Shown piece by piece: positions 1 to 53,556 of a DNA stretch of 64,000 bases. The stretch comes from a virus. The DNA is taken from positions 21,444 to 85,443 of the IMG/VR virus record IMGVR_UViG_3300033153_006243; one strand, given 5' to 3'. The notes under the pieces are model-generated. The model was not told the origin of the DNA. It saw only the letters and a list, made by a program, of their open reading frames with translations, and ran no database searches. Positions within the stretch are counted from its first letter, which is position 1. Each line of letters opens with the position of its first letter. A program made the position numbers and the translations under genes.

Positions 1-521
1 GTTAGAAAAACGAAACCGATCTGCTTTTGGGCTAAAAAATAGGAAGGATATACTTTTTGGTTAGAAACGAGGAATATATTGCTTTCGGGCTCAAAAGCAA
101 AAGTGATCTGCTTTTAGGCCGGGGACTAAGAGTATTCTCCTTTTGGACGGAGGATTAGAACTGATCTGCTTTTTGTCAAGAAGCCAGAAGCGATCTGTTT
201 TTGAGGCAAAAGGGAAAAGTAAAATGTTTTTGAGGCAAAAGGGAAAAGTAAAATGTTTTTGAGGCAAAAGGGAAAAGTAAAATGTTTTTGGCCAGAAAAG
301 TAGAATTGATCTGTTTTTAGGTAAAGTGGCAAAAATGATTTATTTTGGGCCGAAAAGAGGAAACTATTCGTTTTTGGGTAAGAAGGTAAAAATGATCCAC
401 TTTTGGGTAGGAAACGGAAAATGATCCGCCTTTTGAGGGAAAGACGAAACCGATCCACTTTTGGGCTGGAGAACAAAAGCGATCTATTTTTAAGGAAGAA
501 ACCAAAAACGATATATTCCTT
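1..521. repeat. Degenerate 29-bp tandem array (about 18 units, probably continuing upstream of the window)
   Basis: GATC in register at 18,105,163,192,308,394,423,452,481 (multiples of 29 with one 28-bp unit); three identical units at 204-290; core resembles AAAA-N1-2-GATC-N2-3-TTTT. Confidence 0.92.
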
Positions 522-604
522 TGTGAGCTATTTCGATAAACCGCTCTAACGGTAGCGTAAGGGGGGTTTTTGGGATGAAAAGTATCAAGTTTTAGGAGAG
601 GGGC

Positions 605-3064
605 ATGATAACGCTCCATCTCGGCGACTGCCTGGAAGTATTAGGGACGCTGGAGGAGAATAGCGTGGATACGGTGATTACCGATCCCCCGTATGAACTT
701 GGCTTCATGGGGAAGAAATGGGATGGTACGGGAGTCTCCTTCCAGAAAGAGACGTGGAAGGCGGTGCTTAGGGTAGCGAAACCGGGGGCGACGATGCTGT
801 GCTTTGGGGGAACGAGGACATGGCATCGGCTGGCTTGTGCGGCAGAGGACGCGGGATGGCAAATAAGGGATACATGCATGTTTTTGTACGGATCTGGATT
901 TCCAAAATCTTTATCAATATCGAAGCAACTGGATAAGCAGGAGCGGGATAAGTGGTTGAAAGTAGAGAAGGCAACTTACGATATCAACAAACATACTGTA
1001 ATGGTAGCATGGAAAGAGAACTCAAGAACTGCGAAGTCTGCGGGGCTACTATTCGCAAAGAATGGAATCGGAACTGGAATGAATACGCCAAAAAGCGATT
1101 TTGTTCTAGGAAATGCAATGCTATCAATCAATCCCAAAAAATCAAGTGTAAATGCGATCATTGCGGAACTATCTTTGAACGTTCCCCATCACATCTACGA
1201 CAAAAGAAATGGGTATTCTGTTCCAGAGAATGTAGACATAAGCACCTATCGGTCGAAGCCATCTGCGGAATTTGTGGTAAGCAAGCAACCGTGCCTAGAA
1301 GTAGGGCCAGCGGAAAGTATTATTGTTCCCGTCAATGTATGGGGTTGGCAAAGCGGAAATACAATGGGCAATCTCAAGGCCGTCGAAGCCCTGAGGATTT
1401 GGCTTGGAAGCAAAAAGTCCTCAAGGACGCAAACTATAAATGTGCTATGTGCGGCATTGACCGACGACTTGAAGCACATCATATTAAGTCAATCAAAGAC
1501 TTTCCAAACCTTCGACACGATCCAACAAATGGAATGTGTGTCTGCCATGAATGTCATTATTACGGAATCCACGGCGGAGCACCTAATTTCATTCATGGTC
1601 GATATGCTAAGAAGTAAAGCTATTGATAAGGCGAAAGGAGCGAAAAGGAAAGTGGTAGGTAAATCCCGCTCAATAGATTGTATCGAGCGTGGGTATACCA
1701 AAGAGTACAGTACGAAGGCGGAAAATAGTGGTTACGGAACATCTCGCCAATTTGGGCTTGGCCTCCCCATCACCGCCCCCGCGACCGATCTCGCCAAGCA
1801 ATGGAATGGATGGGGTAGTTCCCTTAAGCCCGCATGGGAACCTATACTTGTATGCATGAAACCATTAGACGGGACATACGCGGAAAATGCAGAAAAGCAT
1901 GGTGTGGCTGGATTGAATATCGATGGGGGAAGGATAGAGATACAAGGTAATCCATATAAGCAGGGGTTTAGAAAGGGAATCTATGTTGATAATTACGAAG
2001 CGACCTCTTGGAGGCTACGGAAGAATGGAATCCCGCATACAAAGCTCCCGCACACTCAAGGCCGCTGGCCCGCGAATCTGATACTCTCCCATTCCCTCGA
2101 ATGCCGCCAAGTCGGGGAACAATGGGAATGTGCTGAGGGCTGCCCGGTGAGGATGCTAGACGAGCAGAGCGGGGAGCTGGATGGAAGAGGGAATAAGGGG
2201 CCTAGTATATCAAGGGCGGATGTATATGGATTCACTTTTGTTCATAGCTGCGGAGGGGAATTCTCTCGTGGCGATTCGGGCGGAGCATCTCGATTCTTCT
2301 ACTGTGCGAAGGCGTCGAGGAAGGAACGGAATATGGGGCTTAACAGCATACATACGATAAAGTATAATGTAGGCAAGTCAACTTTAGGGGGCTTGTTATG
2401 CAAAGACGTAAGTATGGTACTGGTAGCATTTCTCGAAAAGGCTACATCAGGATCAATGGTCAGATGGCTCATCGACGAGTCTGGCGAAAGCATCATGGGC
2501 CTGTGCCCGTCGGATTCTTTATCCACCACATTGATGGGGATAAGCAAAATAACCGAATCGAAAATCTCAGACTTATTGATGCCCTTACTCACAAAAGACT
2601 GCATACCGGATGTGAATTGCGGAACGGGGAATGGTGGAAGCCCTGCCGCAAGTGTGGAGAGTTCAAGCAAGTCTCAACGGACTATTATAAGCGAAAGCCA
2701 AGCGGGATTAGTCCGTGGTGTAAAAGCTGTTGCGTTGCCAATGCTGTCTATAATAAGCGACGCCGCAAACTGGAAGCCGCTAACCAATACACATAGTACA
2801 GTAAAGCCTCTTGCCCTCCTAGATTACCTCTGTAAGCTGACTAAGACGCCTACGGGGGGAATCGTTCTCGACCCGTTTATGGGTAGCGGGACTACGGGGA
2901 TAGCGGCGATCAGGATGGGTAGGAAATTCATAGGTATCGAGAAGGATAAGGAGTCGTTTGAGATAGCGAAGATGAGGATAGAGGCGGCGAAACCGGAGGC
3001 GGAGGCGATTAGGTTGGGGATAAAGCCGGAGAATCACCTGCCGGGGATTAAGCCGCTGTTCTGA
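605..3064 (+). CDS. DNA methyltransferase (N6A/N4C, beta class) carrying two in-frame insertions
   Basis: GDCLE start, DPPY, YGSGFPKS, LKPAWEPI, GRWPANLI, SRFFYCAKAS, STVKP and DPFMGSGTT motifs; RBS AGGAG upstream. Confidence 0.95.
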   Translation: MITLHLGDCLEVLGTLEENSVDTVITDPPYELGFMGKKWDGTGVSFQKETWKAVLRVAKPGATMLCFGGTRTWHRLACAAEDAGWQIRDTCMFLYGSGFPKSLSISKQLDKQERDKWLKVEKATYDINKHTVMVAWKENSRTAKSAGLLFAKNGIGTGMNTPKSDFVLGNAMLSINPKKSSVNAIIAELSLNVPHHIYDKRNGYSVPENVDISTYRSKPSAEFVVSKQPCLEVGPAESIIVPVNVWGWQSGNTMGNLKAVEALRIWLGSKKSSRTQTINVLCAALTDDLKHIILSQSKTFQTFDTIQQMECVSAMNVIITESTAEHLISFMVDMLRSKAIDKAKGAKRKVVGKSRSIDCIERGYTKEYSTKAENSGYGTSRQFGLGLPITAPATDLAKQWNGWGSSLKPAWEPILVCMKPLDGTYAENAEKHGVAGLNIDGGRIEIQGNPYKQGFRKGIYVDNYEATSWRLRKNGIPHTKLPHTQGRWPANLILSHSLECRQVGEQWECAEGCPVRMLDEQSGELDGRGNKGPSISRADVYGFTFVHSCGGEFSRGDSGGASRFFYCAKASRKERNMGLNSIHTIKYNVGKSTLGGLLCKDVSMVLVAFLEKATSGSMVRWLIDESGESIMGLCPSDSLSTTLMGISKITESKISDLLMPLLTKDCIPDVNCGTGNGGSPAASVESSSKSQRTIISESQAGLVRGVKAVALPMLSIISDAANWKPLTNTHSTVKPLALLDYLCKLTKTPTGGIVLDPFMGSGTTGIAAIRMGRKFIGIEKDKESFEIAKMRIEAAKPEAEAIRLGIKPENHLPGIKPLF
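920..1612 (+). mobile_element. 693-bp in-frame insertion 1 in the methyltransferase, carrying a nested HNH gene
   Basis: Interrupts the family motif FPKSLxISKAIDK; SKQLDK on the left, SKAIDK on the right; looks AT-richer than flanks; boundaries approximate. Confidence 0.8.
952..1617 (+). CDS. Nested HNH endonuclease with three CxxC..CSxxC zinc fingers (likely start ATG 1009)
   Basis: CEVC..FCSRKC, CDHC..FCSREC, CGIC..YCSRQC, then CAMCG..LEAHHIK..NGMCVCHECH; -1 frame relative to the methyltransferase. Confidence 0.92.
   Translation: MVESREGNLRYQQTYCNGSMERELKNCEVCGATIRKEWNRNWNEYAKKRFCSRKCNAINQSQKIKCKCDHCGTIFERSPSHLRQKKWVFCSRECRHKHLSVEAICGICGKQATVPRSRASGKYYCSRQCMGLAKRKYNGQSQGRRSPEDLAWKQKVLKDANYKCAMCGIDRRLEAHHIKSIKDFPNLRHDPTNGMCVCHECHYYGIHGGAPNFIHGRYAKK
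2340..2368 (+). promoter_or_regulatory. Sigma70-like promoter inside the methyltransferase coding sequence, upstream of nested HNH 2
   Basis: TTAACA(2340-2345)-17 nt-TATAAT(2363-2368); AGGGGG RBS at 2386-2391; ATG at 2398. Confidence 0.75.
2341..2783 (+). mobile_element. About 440-bp in-frame insertion 2 in the methyltransferase, carrying a nested HNH gene
   Basis: Lies between ERNMGL and NTHSTVKP; the host-frame translation is not methyltransferase-like; boundaries approximate. Confidence 0.75.
2398..2796 (+). CDS. Nested HNH endonuclease (HNH_3-like) with C-terminal zinc finger
   Basis: GYIRI..AHRRVW..HHIDGDKQNNRIENLRL..HKRLH, then CRKC..CKSC; -1 frame relative to the methyltransferase. 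Confidence 0.92.
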   Translation: MQRRKYGTGSISRKGYIRINGQMAHRRVWRKHHGPVPVGFFIHHIDGDKQNNRIENLRLIDALTHKRLHTGCELRNGEWWKPCRKCGEFKQVSTDYYKRKPSGISPWCKSCCVANAVYNKRRRKLEAANQYT

Positions 3065-3076
3065 GGAAAACGAAGG

Positions 3077-3400
3077 ATGATTAAGGAATTCGAGGACGGA
3101 AGGGTGCAGATAGAGTTAGATACCGATAGGGATCCCTTCGGGTGGATATCGTGGAAGGGCACTGATGTATGTATGACTATCAAGTGTACTAAGTGCGGGT
3201 TCACGGGGCATGTGGATGCAGAGGGGGCCTATTTCGTCCGTTGCGCCGTATGTGGCCAGATGTATAGGGTACTTGGCTTCGTTATCCTTCAGGCCGTAGA
3301 TACCCTACCGGAATGGATGGGGGAGGATGGGGAACGGATAGCGGATTCTGGTATCGAAAAGGAGGAAATAGAGGAAGCAAAGCAAGACTATGAGAGGTGA
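3077..3400 (+). CDS. Hypothetical zinc-ribbon protein
   Basis: CTKC and CAVC pairs; RBS; tightly packed. Confidence 0.7.
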   Translation: MIKEFEDGRVQIELDTDRDPFGWISWKGTDVCMTIKCTKCGFTGHVDAEGAYFVRCAVCGQMYRVLGFVILQAVDTLPEWMGEDGERIADSGIEKEEIEEAKQDYER

Positions 3401-3746
3401 GGTGATGAGGAGAAGGTTTGCACTATATGTTATTATGGTACTCTTACTGGCATTGGGGGCGTGTGCAGAGAAGCGGGAAGAGAAAATTGACGGAATATAT
3501 AAGGGTTCAGTCTTTGTCGCCGGATATATGATGAACTACTTGAGTTCACAACCCGCACGATGCCATGTACTGGTTTTAATCGACGGTATAGAGAAAGTCT
3601 ATACGTTTTCCTACCAGTCGGCAGAGGTAGCATGGTTGAAGCTTAAGAACTGCCCCAATGGGACGCCTGTAACCGTGATCATGGTAGGCGATAAATTTCG
3701 CGGACTAGAATGGAGTAGAGGTGATTATTACGACGGTAAACGGTAA
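3390..3746 (+). CDS. Putative lipoprotein
   Basis: Basic N-terminus, hydrophobic stretch and LGAC lipobox. Confidence 0.6.
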   Translation: MRGEVMRRRFALYVIMVLLLALGACAEKREEKIDGIYKGSVFVAGYMMNYLSSQPARCHVLVLIDGIEKVYTFSYQSAEVAWLKLKNCPNGTPVTVIMVGDKFRGLEWSRGDYYDGKR

Positions 3747-3778
3747 GTTTCGCATTAGGAATAGAGGAAGGAAGAAGG

Positions 3779-4078
3779 ATGAAGGAAATAGGTAGGATAG
3801 AGATCTGTAGTATATCTAAGGGGGATGTAAGTAGGAAGTGTGAATGGATGGATAGGGGGGACTATAACAAACAAGATTATGTTAGATGTCTCAATCCCGC
3901 CGTCCGTGAGATTAGTACGGTACATATAAGCGATAGCGAGCAGGGAAAGGAACGTCCGGGCGGCGTATTTCGTATCGCCGTCTGCATGGAACATACGGAA
4001 GATGCGGTTATTGGCGGGCTTAACGCCCTACGTGGATGTTATCTACTACTGTCGGATGAGAAGGAGGAAGAGAAATGA
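3779..4078 (+). CDS. Hypothetical protein
   Basis: RBS; ATGA overlap with the next gene. Confidence 0.6.
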   Translation: MKEIGRIEICSISKGDVSRKCEWMDRGDYNKQDYVRCLNPAVREISTVHISDSEQGKERPGGVFRIAVCMEHTEDAVIGGLNALRGCYLLLSDEKEEEK

Positions 4079-4341
4079 ACGGGATGGATAGGAGTATGAT
4101 AATGGAGACGTATAAGTTTGGTAGGACCCCTATCGAGATATGGAGGCATTGTGATACGGGGGAGGAGATCCGGCTAGAGCCAAAGAGGGATAAGATTGAC
4201 TACTGGGGGATGAGTTTCGCCGCGGAGGTGAAGTATTGGGAGGCGAAGGAGGAGGAGTATAGCCTAATCGGGCTAGGGACGAGCCAAAGACTGGCTATCG
4301 AGGACCTACGGAGAAAGATAGAGAAGGAGAACGCCGCTTAG
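4075..4341 (+). CDS. Hypothetical protein
   Basis: AAGGAGG RBS; coupled to the previous gene. Confidence 0.6.
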   Translation: MNGMDRSMIMETYKFGRTPIEIWRHCDTGEEIRLEPKRDKIDYWGMSFAAEVKYWEAKEEEYSLIGLGTSQRLAIEDLRRKIEKENAA

Positions 4342-4367
4342 GAACGTAGAGAGAGGAGGACGGGGGA

Positions 4368-4727
4368 ATGAAGACAAACATCCTATGCAAGGAGATTAGG
4401 CAGGTGGCCACGGGATTCATCGTAGAGGCGCAATGGCCTACTGGAGGGGAGCCGGGCGGATACGGAGAGGTGATCTGTAAGGATATGGAGGAGGTTATCC
4501 GCGTACTGAAGGACTGCCAATGTGTAGATGTAGATGAGGAAATCGTGAACGAAGAACCTGAAGAACGAACAACTAGCGAACTCCTACGTAAATTGGAAAC
4601 CACGATGTTATTGTGGAGGGGGCCGTATGATCATAGGGATTTCGAGGAAGTGATACGTAGGATTGTAGCGCTCTTGCGGCGGCTATATGATAAGAGATGC
4701 TGTGTAAAGGCTGCGGAACGGAGATGA
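4368..4727 (+). CDS. Hypothetical protein
   Basis: GAGGAGG RBS. Confidence 0.6.
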   Translation: MKTNILCKEIRQVATGFIVEAQWPTGGEPGGYGEVICKDMEEVIRVLKDCQCVDVDEEIVNEEPEERTTSELLRKLETTMLLWRGPYDHRDFEEVIRRIVALLRRLYDKRCCVKAAERR

Positions 4728-8278: not shown

Positions 8279-8463
8279 TCTGGCCAGAGGATAGAGAAGA
8301 AACTAGGAAATATATTAACTCCCTGCGGATTGAAAATGAGCGGTTAAGACTAAGGCTTGAATCTCTTACCAAGTGGGCATACAAAAAGGCTCGACCGGGT
8401 CTGTGGCTATCGTTTGCGCTAGGAAGGTTTATCGGAAGAAGGGAGAGGCGAAGAGGTGGATGA
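8275..8463 (+). CDS. Hypothetical protein
   Basis: ATGA coupling. Confidence 0.5.
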   Translation: MIWPEDREETRKYINSLRIENERLRLRLESLTKWAYKKARPGLWLSFALGRFIGRRERRRGG

Positions 8464-8505
8464 GAAGCATTATTGGTATTTCGTAGTAGATAGGGGAGAA
8501 GGATA

Positions 8506-8721
8506 ATGGATGGAGTGACTGAACAGGATCTGATGATCTCGGTGAGCTTCCTTATGGGAATGGTATTCTCCGGCATTTTCCATTGGCTTATCTTTGGGAT
8601 CGCTCTTTGGGGGGTTACGAGATTTTTCAGAGGCAGGATTAACGACATGAAAAGACAGCTTACGGTGAGAGGAAGTATAGATGCTCAAGAAGAAGATATT
8701 CACGGAGGACGGGGAGTTTGA
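8506..8721 (+). CDS. Small membrane protein
   Basis: RBS; one TM helix. Confidence 0.55.
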   Translation: MDGVTEQDLMISVSFLMGMVFSGIFHWLIFGIALWGVTRFFRGRINDMKRQLTVRGSIDAQEEDIHGGRGV

Positions 8722-8917
8722 GATTGAGCTGGAGACGGAATTGATAGAGGCCCATGCAGGAATGGACGAGCGGCTAGTCTGGTGCTCCTTTTGCCCGGAA
8801 CTGGGGGCGGCATCCTGCGGGGATACAAAAGGGGAGGCGATTAGGAATATCAAGGAGGCGATAGAGACCCAGTTAGACGCGATGCGGGAGCTTGGAAAGA
8901 GGATGGAGGAAGAATGA
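8681..8917 (+). CDS. HicB-like antitoxin domain protein
   Basis: CPELGAASCGDTKGEAIRNIKEAIE matches the HicB N-terminal pattern. Confidence 0.75.
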   Translation: MLKKKIFTEDGEFEIELETELIEAHAGMDERLVWCSFCPELGAASCGDTKGEAIRNIKEAIETQLDAMRELGKRMEEE

Positions 8918-9612
8918 AGGTAGTCGTTATCGGAGCAGGGCCGAGCGCGACGGTCTATCCTCATGCTAAAGAGATAGATTCGGCGGATAAGGTGGTCCGG
9001 GTGAACTACTACGAGATCAAGGGATACGAGGATCGTGTAGGAACCCGGACGGATATATGGATCACGACCCGTCTTGATTCCCATAAAGGCTTTCGGGACA
9101 ATATGAGGGATTTCTTAATAGATTGGGTTCCCGACGGGATCGATAAGATTGAGGCTATATGGATATATCCGCGAAGGGGAAAGGAGAGATATGGGGATCA
9201 GCTTACTAGAATCCTGGCCCTTCGGCCCGATCTGGAGCCTGTCATAACGGAGCGCGGCTTTGTTACCTATACGAATAAGGAATGCGGGAACGAGGGGACG
9301 AGTATAGCGTCGGGGCGACCGTCCTCTGGGACAATGGCCGTGTTCCTCGCCTTTCAGCGGTTCGATCCGACGGAAATGCTGATTATGGGGTTTGACGCGG
9401 TGCTTACGGATAGCCCTGCCTATATGGACTATTATGGTTCGATTGGGAGGCCAATTTTTCAGAAGGAAAACCCCCGCAGTTCCGGCCATCACTATGATAG
9501 AGAGCGGGCGTTGATATTTAAGACCGCTAGGGAGTTCGATATGGACATGGATGCCGTGGAGCAGTATAGCGGGATTGTGCGTTTCCGAAAGGTAGGGATT
9601 CCGAATGAATGA
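8914..9612 (+). CDS. GT29-like (sialyltransferase-motif) glycosyltransferase
   Basis: VVIGAGPS..IDSADKVVRVN..VGTRTD (L-like), PSSG..MGFD (S-like), HHYDRE (VS-like). Confidence 0.75.
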   Translation: MKVVVIGAGPSATVYPHAKEIDSADKVVRVNYYEIKGYEDRVGTRTDIWITTRLDSHKGFRDNMRDFLIDWVPDGIDKIEAIWIYPRRGKERYGDQLTRILALRPDLEPVITERGFVTYTNKECGNEGTSIASGRPSSGTMAVFLAFQRFDPTEMLIMGFDAVLTDSPAYMDYYGSIGRPIFQKENPRSSGHHYDRERALIFKTAREFDMDMDAVEQYSGIVRFRKVGIPNE

Positions 9613-52260: not shown

Positions 52261-53556
52261 TCATATAAACGGACGGATTACGGAATCCTCTGATACGGGG
52301 GGCCGCTTCCTCTTTGCGTATGGATTCCTAATCCGTCGATTCGCCATCTCGCAGTAATCCGGGTTGAGGTCTAGGCCGATAAATCTTCTATTCAGTTTCC
52401 AAGCAACCACACCCACCGTACCTGAACCAGCAAAGGGGTCGAGGACGAGGCAGGGATCAAGTTTCTGATCCGGCGGGGGGATATAGTATTTTTGCATTTT
52501 CGTAACCCACTGCACCTCAAAATCGACCACGCTATCCCATACCTTGATGTGCCTTTCCTTCCACTCGCCCTCACAGGAACAGGTGGGTTGCCATCCATTG
52601 GCGTGACCACGCCTAACGGGGCTATCATAATCTCGTGGTGACTTTTCTTTCTCCATCACCCTCTCTTGCGGAGCCCCACATTTCTGGCAGCACCCCTTCT
52701 CGCTCGTTCCCGCCTTAATCAGAGGCATTACCAATCCCTCTGGAAACGTAGCGAAGTGGGCCTCCTTGAATCCCGCCGGGTTTACAATTAGTGCTAACGG
52801 GTCGCCCCCCTCATTCCATAGGCCCCGCCACGACTCGAAGAACCAATCGGAATTCCGGCGGCTACGACCAGAGGACGGCCCCCAACGTTCTCCCATCTCC
52901 TCTACGGCATCCGGTTCCGAGCGCTTTCCGCCCATCTCTACGCCATGCCAACCGGATTTACACCGTTCAACCGTAGAACCCTTCAGCCTTACTTTGACTG
53001 CCTCCCCATCATAAAAGTATCGGGCGCTTTTGGTTAGCAGGAAAATATATTCCACGGCGCTCGTCGGCCTATCCTTACAGCTCTCAGGCATTGCCGATCT
53101 TTTGAGCCACGGGATCATGCTCCGTAAATACCAGCCGTCCGCCTGGAGAGCTATCGCAAGCCTCGCTGGAATCATGCATAGATCTTTAGGCTTGAGGCTG
53201 TCCACGAAACGACGCTGCTTACCCTTAAAAGCTTTTAGGGTTGCCTGTGAGTCAAGCGGGCCAACCTTATTGCCCCCGCCGTGCGTAGAGGCGGCAGAGT
53301 ACGAATCGCCCATCACCAACCACAGCGTCCCGTCCTTCCTAAGCACCCGCCTTACCTCCCGGAACACCTTAACCATCTTCTCGATATAGGCTTCCAGGGT
53401 TTTCTCAAGGCCATATTGCCCCTCTACATTATACGATCTTAACCCCCAATAAGGGGGAGAAGTTATGCAGCACTGAACACTTTCGCCCGGCAGCTTTGCC
53501 AAGCCTTCCAGTACGTCGAAACAATGTACCTTCCCTAGTTCCAAATTCAATTTCAT
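52261..53556 (-). CDS. DNA methyltransferase (N4C/N6A, beta class)
   Basis: TSPPYWGLR, HFATFP, DPFAGSGT. Confidence 0.95.
   Translation of the reverse strand: MKLNLELGKVHCFDVLEGLAKLPGESVQCCITSPPYWGLRSYNVEGQYGLEKTLEAYIEKMVKVFREVRRVLRKDGTLWLVMGDSYSAASTHGGGNKVGPLDSQATLKAFKGKQRRFVDSLKPKDLCMIPARLAIALQADGWYLRSMIPWLKRSAMPESCKDRPTSAVEYIFLLTKSARYFYDGEAVKVRLKGSTVERCKSGWHGVEMGGKRSEPDAVEEMGERWGPSSGRSRRNSDWFFESWRGLWNEGGDPLALIVNPAGFKEAHFATFPEGLVMPLIKAGTSEKGCCQKCGAPQERVMEKEKSPRDYDSPVRRGHANGWQPTCSCEGEWKERHIKVWDSVVDFEVQWVTKMQKYYIPPPDQKLDPCLVLDPFAGSGTVGVVAWKLNRRFIGLDLNPDYCEMANRRIRNPYAKRKRPPVSEDSVIRPFI

Follow-up and report, generated by a model that had tools for sequence, protein, structure and literature searches.

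The ShiLan domain is a hidden, out-of-frame HNH insertion in gp65, a DNA methylase of mycobacteriophages (Gosselin et al. 2023, PMC9957025; Arsenault, Gosselin & Gogarten 2025, PMC11855218). Its HNH protein comprises 195 aa with two zinc fingers and begins with a GTG codon for which leaderless translation has been proposed; no RBS was detected, and the 2025 paper left open how an out-of-frame nuclease of this kind is expressed (PMC11855218). In gp60 of Pacc40, another hidden endonuclease occupies a different methylase site, and its free-standing relatives are found beside methylase genes of other phages (PMC11855218). Inteins with the homing endonuclease in another frame or on the other strand have been described as well (bioRxiv 10.1101/2025.01.02.630785).

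Here we analyse an HNH gene nested in a methylase gene of a metagenomic virus. The window, a stretch of 64,000 nucleotides from the IMG/VR record IMGVR_UViG_3300033153_006243, contains a long methylase frame interrupted by two insertions (Table 1). Insertion 2, with which this work is mainly concerned, is a real and conserved example of the ShiLan-type hidden HNH element, whose first description dates from 2025 (PMC11855218); what is new is its HNH family, the site at which it is inserted and its conserved expression cassette. We consider it probable that it represents a mobile homing endonuclease gene of the free-standing HNH type, which resides in a phage methylase site and is translated through by its host, the nuclease being expressed separately.

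According to this scenario, the element would lodge at a conserved site of the methylase, apparently with neither RNA nor protein splicing. The length of the insert is divisible by three and no stop interrupts the methylase frame within it, so that translation of the methylase would continue straight through, adding 149 residues between the target-recognition region and motif X of the enzyme. The conservation of a sigma-70-type promoter at the edge of the insert, and of the Shine-Dalgarno (SD) sequence and ATG behind it, suggests that these signals would drive the nuclease, whose frame would terminate within motif codons of the methylase itself. The variant of this motif with His-Ser(AGY) would travel with the element and provide the stop at the window locus, and homing, to judge from the distribution of the element, would spread it between divergent methylases.

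Table 1. Coordinates of the methylase gene, its two insertions and the signals of the nested HNH gene in the window.
Feature	Coordinates	Strand	Description
Host methylase gene	605..3064	+	819-codon open frame, beta-class (CcrM-like) N6/N4 DNA methyltransferase; two insertions read through
Insertion 1	952..1617	+	second, unrelated nested HNH (HNH_2, Cys-rich zinc-ribbon-like motifs), same frame relation
Insertion 2	2339..2785	+	447 nt, 149 codons, residues 579-727 by 62-protein alignment
-35 hexamer TTAACA	2340..2345	+	within Leu-Asn-Ser codons
-10 hexamer TATAAT	2363..2368	+	within Lys-Tyr-Asn codons; 17-nt spacer from -35
Shine-Dalgarno AGGGGG	2386..2391	+	6 nt, then ATG 2398-2400
HNH endonuclease gene	2398..2796	+	132 aa, HNH_3 core and C-terminal Cys-rich zinc ribbon
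Junction stop position	2785..2787	+	acT AAy gives TAA in seven relatives; CAA here (acC AAt)
C-terminal methylase segment	2786..3064	+	motif X NTHSTVKP, then AdoMet motif DPFMGSGTT
His-Ser codons CAT AGT	2792..2797	+	methylase motif; contain HNH stop TAG

The host methylase, the nested HNH gene and its relatives

The host frame matches the Pfam profile PF01555 (N6_N4_Mtase) with 108.9 bits against a cut-off of 26.7, and CcrM (6PBD) is the top Foldseek match of the methylase model (E 4.6e-6). Its motifs include DPPY at residues 27-30 and, towards the C-terminus, the AdoMet motif DPFMGSGTT near residue 756, which is of the FxGxG type. The same virus encodes a second methylase (52261-53556, minus strand), which is insert-free and of another subtype; we considered it as a target of the nuclease and rejected it, as HFATFP replaces HPTVKP in this different subtype.

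Insertion 2 separates the conserved Gly of ...ERxxG from the Asn of NxH(P)TVKP. In the host frame the left junction is ...ERNMG LNSIHTIKYNVGKSTLGGLLCKDV... and the right junction ...KPLT NTHSTVKP, and the distance from RFF to the His amounts to 164 residues in the window versus 15 in insert-free relatives. The insertion is missing from 70 of the 73 relatives sampled.

The nuclease is read one base behind the methylase frame. Its ORF matches PF13392 (HNH_3) over residues 23-63 (E 1.5e-18, 66.6 bits versus a curated cut-off of 24.8) as well as 21 PHROG families, 16 of them annotated as HNH endonuclease; the methylase-frame peptide of the same insertion has no match in Pfam or PHROG. The N-terminus MQRRKYG is kept in the relatives, and a PDB sequence search with the HNH protein returned nothing at E <= 1. 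Across the nested copies, amino acid identity is 71% in the HNH frame versus 45% in the host frame, and variation gathers at the wobble positions of the HNH codons (113 of 127). The dN/dS ratio is 0.42 for the HNH frame versus 0.99 for the methylase frame, the latter value being biased because the synonymous sites of the host are first positions of HNH codons. Selection thus acts on the HNH frame.

The same layout at the same site is found in about 45 distinct relatives from viral metagenome contigs and in one bacterial MAG. Layout, site and frame offset are shared by 11 of the 14 close relatives first found, and the same arrangement occurs in 33 further distinct proteins; the HNH of L014 is displaced upstream by about 12 codons. 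The MAG copy (L277) exhibits 81% identity and comes from a genome labelled Deltaproteobacteria. A free-standing HNH copy of 74% identity (L008) is located directly 5' of another methylase. HNH identity shows no correlation with host identity (r = 0.01) and is the higher of the two in 43 of 55 pairs, and this failure to track the host fits horizontal movement of the element. In a tblastn search of 50,697 phage records with the HNH protein, identity to any named phage did not exceed 38.6%; Mycobacterium is outside the ten commonest organism names, beyond which there are 23 further names.

The His-Ser motif and the end of the nuclease gene

In the 62-protein alignment NxHPTVKP is the consensus, in which H, T, V, K and P do not vary and N hardly does, and Pro follows the His in 69 of the 73 relatives sampled, in agreement with the original prediction that this is the usual motif of the family. 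In the window Ser takes the place of Pro, and the HNH stop TAG (2794-2796) is composed of the T of CAT (His, 2792-2794) and the AG of AGT (Ser, 2795-2797), so that the nuclease gene ends inside host codons, as had also been proposed. The suggested co-occurrence of HSTVKP with the insert was likewise found: none of the 70 insert-free relatives sampled has Ser, and of the 74 matches to the His-Ser(AGY) pattern in IMG/VR 51 carry the nested HNH. By these counts the His-Ser(AGY) variant is tightly linked to the insert. There are also 13 insert-free methylase alleles with His-Ser(AGY), in varied linker contexts.

The proposal that the change from Pro to Ser creates the HNH stop holds for the window and for 24 of 33 distinct relatives, in which caT AGy is the first in-frame stop, but the change is not needed for termination, which elsewhere takes place at acT AAy or gtT AAr. 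The upstream junction TAA ends the HNH in seven of the 33 members with Ser(AGY). CAA replaces this TAA in the window, which makes the HNH ORF three codons longer, and it is only because the junction TAA is lacking that the TAG is used at all. Other nested members stop at the Val-Lys codons (gtT AAr), and in some nested members, whose HNH ORF ends elsewhere, the His is followed by Pro or Ala. In the family as a whole, Ser is dispensable for HNH termination.

The original suggestion that the change may also remove the nuclease's own target has a rival: Ser(AGY) may merely be what the donor or targeted allele contained, acquired by co-conversion or reflecting the specificity of the nuclease, and not an adaptive recoding for the stop or for immunity. 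All eight Ser variants first examined are AGY; as every Pro codon is two changes away, a single origin is suggested, and a search of the collection for Ser TCN yielded no nested copy. The insert-free His-Ser(AGY) alleles, the members with Pro or Ala that terminate the HNH without trouble, and the seven Ser(AGY) members already stopped by the upstream TAA agree with this explanation. Against it, the TAG of caT AGy is the first in-frame stop in most of the relatives, and a two-base change adjoining the insertion point could block recognition, yet neither argument is decisive. We regard the donor-allele explanation as a serious contender, falling just short of an even chance. The tie of the element to a specific two-base recoding of the motif makes the question of immunity versus co-conversion testable.

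Expression signals and the open host frame

The original prediction placed a promoter and an RBS within host codons at the left end of insertion 2, and the comparison with relatives agrees with it: both hexamers are conserved, as are the distance between them and the SD, while the sequence of the spacer varies. As the alignment places the start of the insert at nt 2339, the second base of the insert is the first of the -35 hexamer. The promoter site scores 11 of 12, the best among seven promoter-like sites in 500-3300, and this score is reached by 0.03% of 3,293 background 90-nt windows. The match to TTGACA-17-TATAAT is at least 10 of 12 in 25 of 33 distinct relatives versus 0.6% of background windows, and weak (6-8 of 12) in eight of the 33; it is perfect in three of the 33 and in the MAG copy L277. 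The relatives mostly have TTGACA at the -35 place and TATAAT or a one-off variant at the -10 place, with a spacer of 16-18 nt. Two layouts recur. In the first, the -10 hexamer lies 14-32 nt 5' of the ATG, usually with an SD of the GGAGG type; in the second it lies only 5-8 nt 5' of the ATG, which looks leaderless. AGGAGG occupies the SD place in L006, L009, L010, L277 and others. Transcription is predicted to start near 2375, and we infer that a sigma-70-type promoter together with the SD would express the nuclease separately from the methylase. The positions originally given for all of these features proved correct on direct reading, but the description of the insert as "triple-use DNA" was too strong, since each base has two uses, as part of a methylase codon and of either the promoter/RBS or an HNH codon or stop.

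The hexamers sit exactly at the edge of the element, as might also be expected if the 5' end of the insert were a nuclease or recombination site rather than a promoter. We find this improbable, as both hexamers fit the sigma-70 consensus and are separated by 16-18 nt that vary in sequence, and their relation to the SD and ATG is fixed in two sensible layouts.

The C-terminal segment of the methylase can be made solely by translation through insertion 2. Stops in the host frame across the insertion number zero here and in every nested relative, versus seven in the corresponding frame of the free-standing copy L008. Remoter free-standing HNH relatives have 1-31 such stops; the exceptions are L020 and L021, which are nested in another frame. 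These two have the nuclease ORF overprinted in that frame and represent an example of the intein type. By synonymous resampling, a +1 frame free of stops over 132 HNH codons has P ~0.007 at this single locus, and just 0.8% of the 132-codon windows in the long ORFs of the window are stop-free in the +1 frame. Activity of a methylase with a 149-residue insert beside HxTxKP is assumed only from the selection that holds this frame open.

The presence of two large insertions in one enzyme, and of a second, insert-free methylase of another subtype in the virus record, could be taken to mean that the methylase is a dead gene, whose open frame is due to chance or is a relic. This seems very unlikely, given the probability of about 0.007 per insert, the complete lack of host-frame stops in some 45 diverged copies, and the retention of all catalytic motifs in the parts of the methylase that flank the inserts, as seen in the 62-protein alignment. 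HNH ORFs are often carried by group I introns of phages (discussed also in PMC11855218) and divergent introns can escape Rfam models, but we give hardly any credence to a self-splicing group I-like intron, cut from the methylase mRNA together with its HNH ORF: the Rfam search of 500-3300 revealed no real family even at E <= 10 (a single chance-level lncRNA match was on the opposite strand), the 59 nt of the insert outside the HNH ORF are too little for a ribozyme core, and a spliced intron needs no open host frame, yet the frame is open in the nested copies and closed by seven stops in the free-standing one. The idea that protein splicing excises the insert as an unusual intein is the least probable of all, as the in-frame position in a conserved motif, with a Ser shortly after the insert, is countered by the lack of any Hint/intein domain in the Pfam search, by termini that are Leu and Thr instead of Cys/Ser ... 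His-Asn, by the dN/dS of about 1 and 45% identity of the host-frame peptide, whose model has no fold match, and by the existence of members in which Pro or Ala follows the His.

If, as we prefer, the methylase is translated through insertion 2, it carries the host-frame peptide. In the AlphaFold model of the full protein, the first half of this peptide (residues 581-650) unexpectedly attains pLDDT values of 85-94, and insertion 1 has values of 25-45. Such a prediction would argue against the peptide being an unconstrained spacer, from which high confidence is not expected. Modelled alone, the peptide is of lower confidence than within the full protein, and a Foldseek search with the isolated model matched no known fold (best E 0.1). 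Identity in the +1 frame is 44.5% among nested copies, and between nested copies and L008 it is 30% where 39% is predicted, a difference confounded by the lower nucleotide identity to L008. It is tempting, although in our opinion rather doubtful, to regard the host-frame peptide as a folded module, or else His-Ser(AGY) as a heritable mark of immunity that is installed by the element and able to outlive it, the latter being suggested by the 13 insert-free Ser(AGY) alleles. Were the peptide a folded module, about 130 codons would encode two structured proteins in two frames.

Comparison with other hidden endonucleases

Insertion 1 has a homologous nested HNH copy in E. coli phage BUCT618, and a tblastn search with its HNH returned only BUCT618 and two weak matches, with no mycobacteriophage among them. 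Annotation presents each methylase of this kind as one long protein, BUCT618 being an example, and overlooks the nuclease genes.

Inteins with an overprinted endonuclease resemble insertion 2 in that the nuclease ORF lies on an open segment of the host frame; their segment is removed from the protein by the surrounding intein, whereas insertion 2 has no splicing domain. The gene mobE (Gibb & Edgell 2007, as cited in bioRxiv 10.1101/2025.01.02.630785) is reportedly an HNH gene lying within nrdA of phage Aeh1. Like insertion 2, it is described as an HNH of the free-standing type that sits in a conserved phage gene together with expression signals of its own, with no intron or intein; however, mobE is said to split its host gene into two separately translated pieces, whereas the host frame of insertion 2 is continuous. 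Pacc40 gp60 shares with insertion 2 the free-standing relatives that adjoin methylase genes (here L008), but its host is a divergent helicase-methylase, its nuclease is less certain, and no expression signals have been described for it.

The ShiLan domain is similar to insertion 2 in most respects. Both are inserted at a conserved site of a phage methylase of the PF01555 type and leave the methylase frame free of stops, with a complete HNH in another frame; both lack the signature of an intron or intein (for insertion 2, according to computational tests); both are disjunct in distribution and do not follow the host gene; and in both cases Ser or Thr is found just after the site in invaded alleles and Pro in uninvaded ones. 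The site of the ShiLan domain, whose start duplicates a downstream motif, looks more like that of insertion 1 than that of insertion 2, a comparison that rests on the text of the paper because the mycobacteriophage methylases that match the window (Rimmer and DrDrey) are devoid of the ShiLan domain. The nucleases differ, with HNH_3 and a zinc ribbon in 132 aa here versus 195 aa with two zinc fingers in ShiLan, and so do their carriers, which are actinophages for ShiLan, and metagenomic viruses and a Deltaproteobacteria-labelled MAG for the insertion 2 family. The hidden-HNH design thus reaches beyond actinophages, and among CcrM-like methylases it is repeatedly found at their most conserved motif. 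Unlike ShiLan, the insertion 2 family has a consensus promoter with an SD, or a -10 hexamer 5-8 nt before the ATG, and for this one lineage the comparison of sequences suggests a clear answer to the question of how a hidden HNH nuclease is expressed: from a consensus promoter of the host type at the edge of the insert, followed by an SD or a leaderless layout, all written within codons that the methylase must read.

The nested nuclease gene and its conservation

The methylase frame of the window matches the N6/N4 DNA methylase family PF01555 in the Pfam search (108.9 bits), and the short ORF nested in it one frame off matches the HNH_3 endonuclease (E 1.5e-18). Relatives free of the insert read RFFYCAKASxxERGEGNxHPTVKP, in agreement with the original prediction that this family usually has NxHPTVKP, and their gap from RFF to the His is 15 residues; in the window it is 164. 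The alignment of 62 proteins fixes the ends of insertion 2, the in-frame insert that holds the HNH gene, as listed in the table: RFF (563-565) and H730 do not vary in it, and N728 hardly does. On re-reading of the sequence, the promoter hexamers, the ribosome-binding site, the ATG and the stop codon all lie where they had been predicted.

Coordinates of the methylase gene, its insertions and other features in the window
Feature	Position	Description
Repeat array	1-540	degenerate repeat units of ~29 bp, with GATC in their cores, immediately 5' of the methylase gene
Methylase open frame	605-3064	819 codons, uninterrupted
Insertion 1	952-1617	different nested HNH, Cys-rich, zinc-ribbon-like, HNH_2
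Insertion 2	2339-2785	447 nt, residues 579-727, from the 62-protein alignment
-35 hexamer	2340-2345	TTAACA, followed by a 17-nt spacer
-10 hexamer	2363-2368	TATAAT
Shine-Dalgarno	2386-2391	AGGGGG, six bases before the ATG
HNH ORF	2398-2796	132 aa, ATG at 2398
Second methylase of the virus	52261-53556 (-)	PF01555, 431 aa, SPPY/HFATFP subtype, without insertion

With the HNH protein as query, viral contigs yielded 14 loci (50-77% identity); in 11 of them the HNH is nested at the identical methylase site, with the identical frame offset and the methylase frame open throughout. Three further loci (L074, L101 and L062) add to those at this insertion site, and a MAG labelled Deltaproteobacteria carries an 81%-identical copy with the layout of the window. 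In one locus (L014, 2959-3381) an HNH of the same family is nested about 12 codons upstream, between ARFF and YTSKA; its host frame is open and the normal HPTIKP motif is retained. Another (L008, 3001-3396) holds a free-standing copy, 74% identical, immediately upstream of a different methylase (3380-4387) of another subtype (SPPY ... HFATFP), whose start it overlaps by 17 nt. Every nested copy is devoid of stops in the +1 frame, whereas this free-standing copy has seven; remoter free-standing relatives have 1-31, the exceptions being two loci (L020/L021) whose ORF is nested in the second alternate frame and which are accordingly open there. Taken by itself, the window has a probability of 0.007 of zero stops under synonymous resampling, and only 0.8% of 132-codon windows from its long ORFs are stop-free in the +1 frame.

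The HNH stop codon and the Pro-to-Ser change

In every copy the stop of the HNH ORF lies no more than a few bases from the conserved His codon, and it takes one of three forms: a TAA that joins the final T of the insert to the host Asn codon (acT|AAy), a TAG within caT AGy, or a TAA across the Val-Lys pair (gtT AAr). In the window the stop is TAG, read from the T of the His codon CAT and the AG of the Ser codon AGT, and the ORF relies on it because the junction reads CAA (acC AAt) rather than TAA, as in seven relatives. The proposal that the Ser change makes the HNH stop is true of the window and of 24 of the 33 distinct Ser(AGY) members, in which TAG is the first stop, but it does not extend to the members with Pro (L011, L012/13, L062) or Ala (L002, L006); their HNH stops elsewhere, and Ser is therefore not required for termination.

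The expected co-occurrence of HSTVKP with the insert was borne out, and the sequence comparisons point to a strong link. A DNA pattern for Asn-x-His-Ser(AGY)-Thr-Val-Lys-Pro, searched across the whole collection, matched 74 times; 51 of these matches have an HNH of this family directly upstream according to an HMM built for it, with 33 distinct full-length HNH proteins among them, all with no host-frame stops. In a sample of methylase relatives, the 70 insert-free alleles have Pro (68) or Ala (2) and never Ser, and both Ser alleles contain the nested HNH. The eight Ser variants first examined are all AGY, which is two changes away from every Pro codon, and a control search for Ser-TCN found only 7 methylase alleles, none with this HNH. 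Elsewhere, 13 insert-free His-Ser(AGY)-Thr-Val-Lys-Pro alleles occur in varied linker contexts (L147, L149, L150, L152, L158, L159, L166, L168, L177, L178, L192, L202, L212), and these may once have hosted the element, may resist it or may be targets that it has not invaded. The observation behind the original prediction is confirmed, and its interpretation as a whole is partly supported. The suggestion in it that the change may also remove the target of the nuclease corresponds to the first of three readings that these data fit: a recoding for immunity, a co-converted donor flank, or simply the state of the targeted allele.

Expression, constraint and mobility

Fifty-nine of the 447 nt of insertion 2 precede the HNH start, and its second base is the first base of the -35 hexamer. 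The promoter-like site scores 11/12, the highest in 500-3300, and in the relatives both hexamers are conserved within this segment, which does not code for the HNH, with a variable spacer between them. Of the 13 members of the first set, 7 score at least 10/12, with the full consensus TTGACA-17-TATAAT in L006 and L007; in the larger set, 25 of the 33 distinct members do so, three of them at 12/12. The corresponding fractions of 3,293 background windows taken from these loci are 0.6% for a score of 10 or more and 0.03% for 11 or more. In one layout, to which the window belongs, 14-32 nt separate the -10 from the ATG and an AGGAGG-type Shine-Dalgarno is usually present; in the other the gap is only 5-8 nt, the spacing that would be expected of a leaderless mRNA. 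The claim of a promoter and ribosome site inside host codons is supported by this conservation, and there is strong comparative evidence for a putative internal promoter in insertion 2, with a predicted start near 2375.

In eight members, 113 of 127 variable sites are third positions of HNH codons, and for the same DNA dN/dS is 0.42 in the HNH frame and 0.99 in the methylase frame (amino acid identity 71% and 45%, respectively), which argues that the nuclease is the constrained product of the overlapping DNA. The methylase-frame peptide is constrained to remain open, at least. HNH identity does not follow that of the host methylase (r = 0.01); in 43 of 55 pairs the HNH is the more similar of the two, a pattern that fits a horizontally moving element.

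When the full methylase was modelled with the 62-protein alignment, the core was confident and matched CcrM (6PBD), M.BceJIV and other beta-class enzymes, and insertion 1 had pLDDT 25-45. A surprise was the first half of insertion 2 in the methylase frame (residues 581-650, nt 2345-2554), which reached 85-94. Modelled alone with 37 host-frame insert sequences, insertion 2 forms a small alpha/beta unit followed by helices (pLDDT 64-86 over ~80 residues), with no match to a solved fold (best Foldseek E 0.1). The high pLDDT may be an artefact, because it is mostly the overlapping HNH frame that accounts for the conservation fed into the modelling. Insertion 2 is very unlikely to be an intein, as Pfam finds no Hint domain, the intein end residues are absent and the host-frame peptide is fast-evolving. 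As an intron it fares no better: no real Rfam family matches at E <= 10 (the lone match is a chance-level lncRNA on the opposite strand), the non-ORF sequence is too short for a ribozyme core, and RNA splicing would make the open host frame unnecessary.

Relation to other hidden nucleases

A 66.5%-identical copy of insertion 1 occupies the same site in the methylase of E. coli phage BUCT618 (L001, 2542-4443, OM735461), a gene annotated as a single 620-aa 'site-specific DNA-methyltransferase' with the nuclease gene uncalled. A related methylase with His-Ser as TCN (L227, ~8440-9030; also L238) contains, between SRF and FKYCAKA, a different Cys-rich HNH-like ORF, out of frame and with one internal stop. 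Several kinds of nested nuclease seem to have these methylases as a hot spot. A high-GC phage (L021, 2617-3198, and L020, 2-565) has an out-of-frame HNH_3-like ORF within an apparent intein of a PolA-type DNA polymerase, in agreement with the 'non-canonical inteins' of bioRxiv 10.1101/2025.01.02.630785.

An HNH nested in a methylase is a kind already published. The ShiLan domain of mycobacteriophage methylases, described in 2023 as an enigmatic mobile in-frame insert (PMC9957025), was shown in 2025 to hide an out-of-frame HNH, with the same Pro versus Ser/Thr difference after the site as in the family of the window (PMC11855218); in a second hidden case, Pacc40, free-standing relatives adjoin methylases (PMC11855218). 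The expression mode of the ShiLan HNH is open, because it has no detectable RBS (PMC11855218). What is new here is an HNH family and an insertion site, directly before motif X (NxHPTVKP), that both appear from the published description to differ from those of ShiLan, together with the occurrence outside actinophages, the conserved predicted promoter with its Shine-Dalgarno or leaderless cassette, the placement of the HNH stop in host motif codons, and the collection-wide linkage to Ser(AGY).
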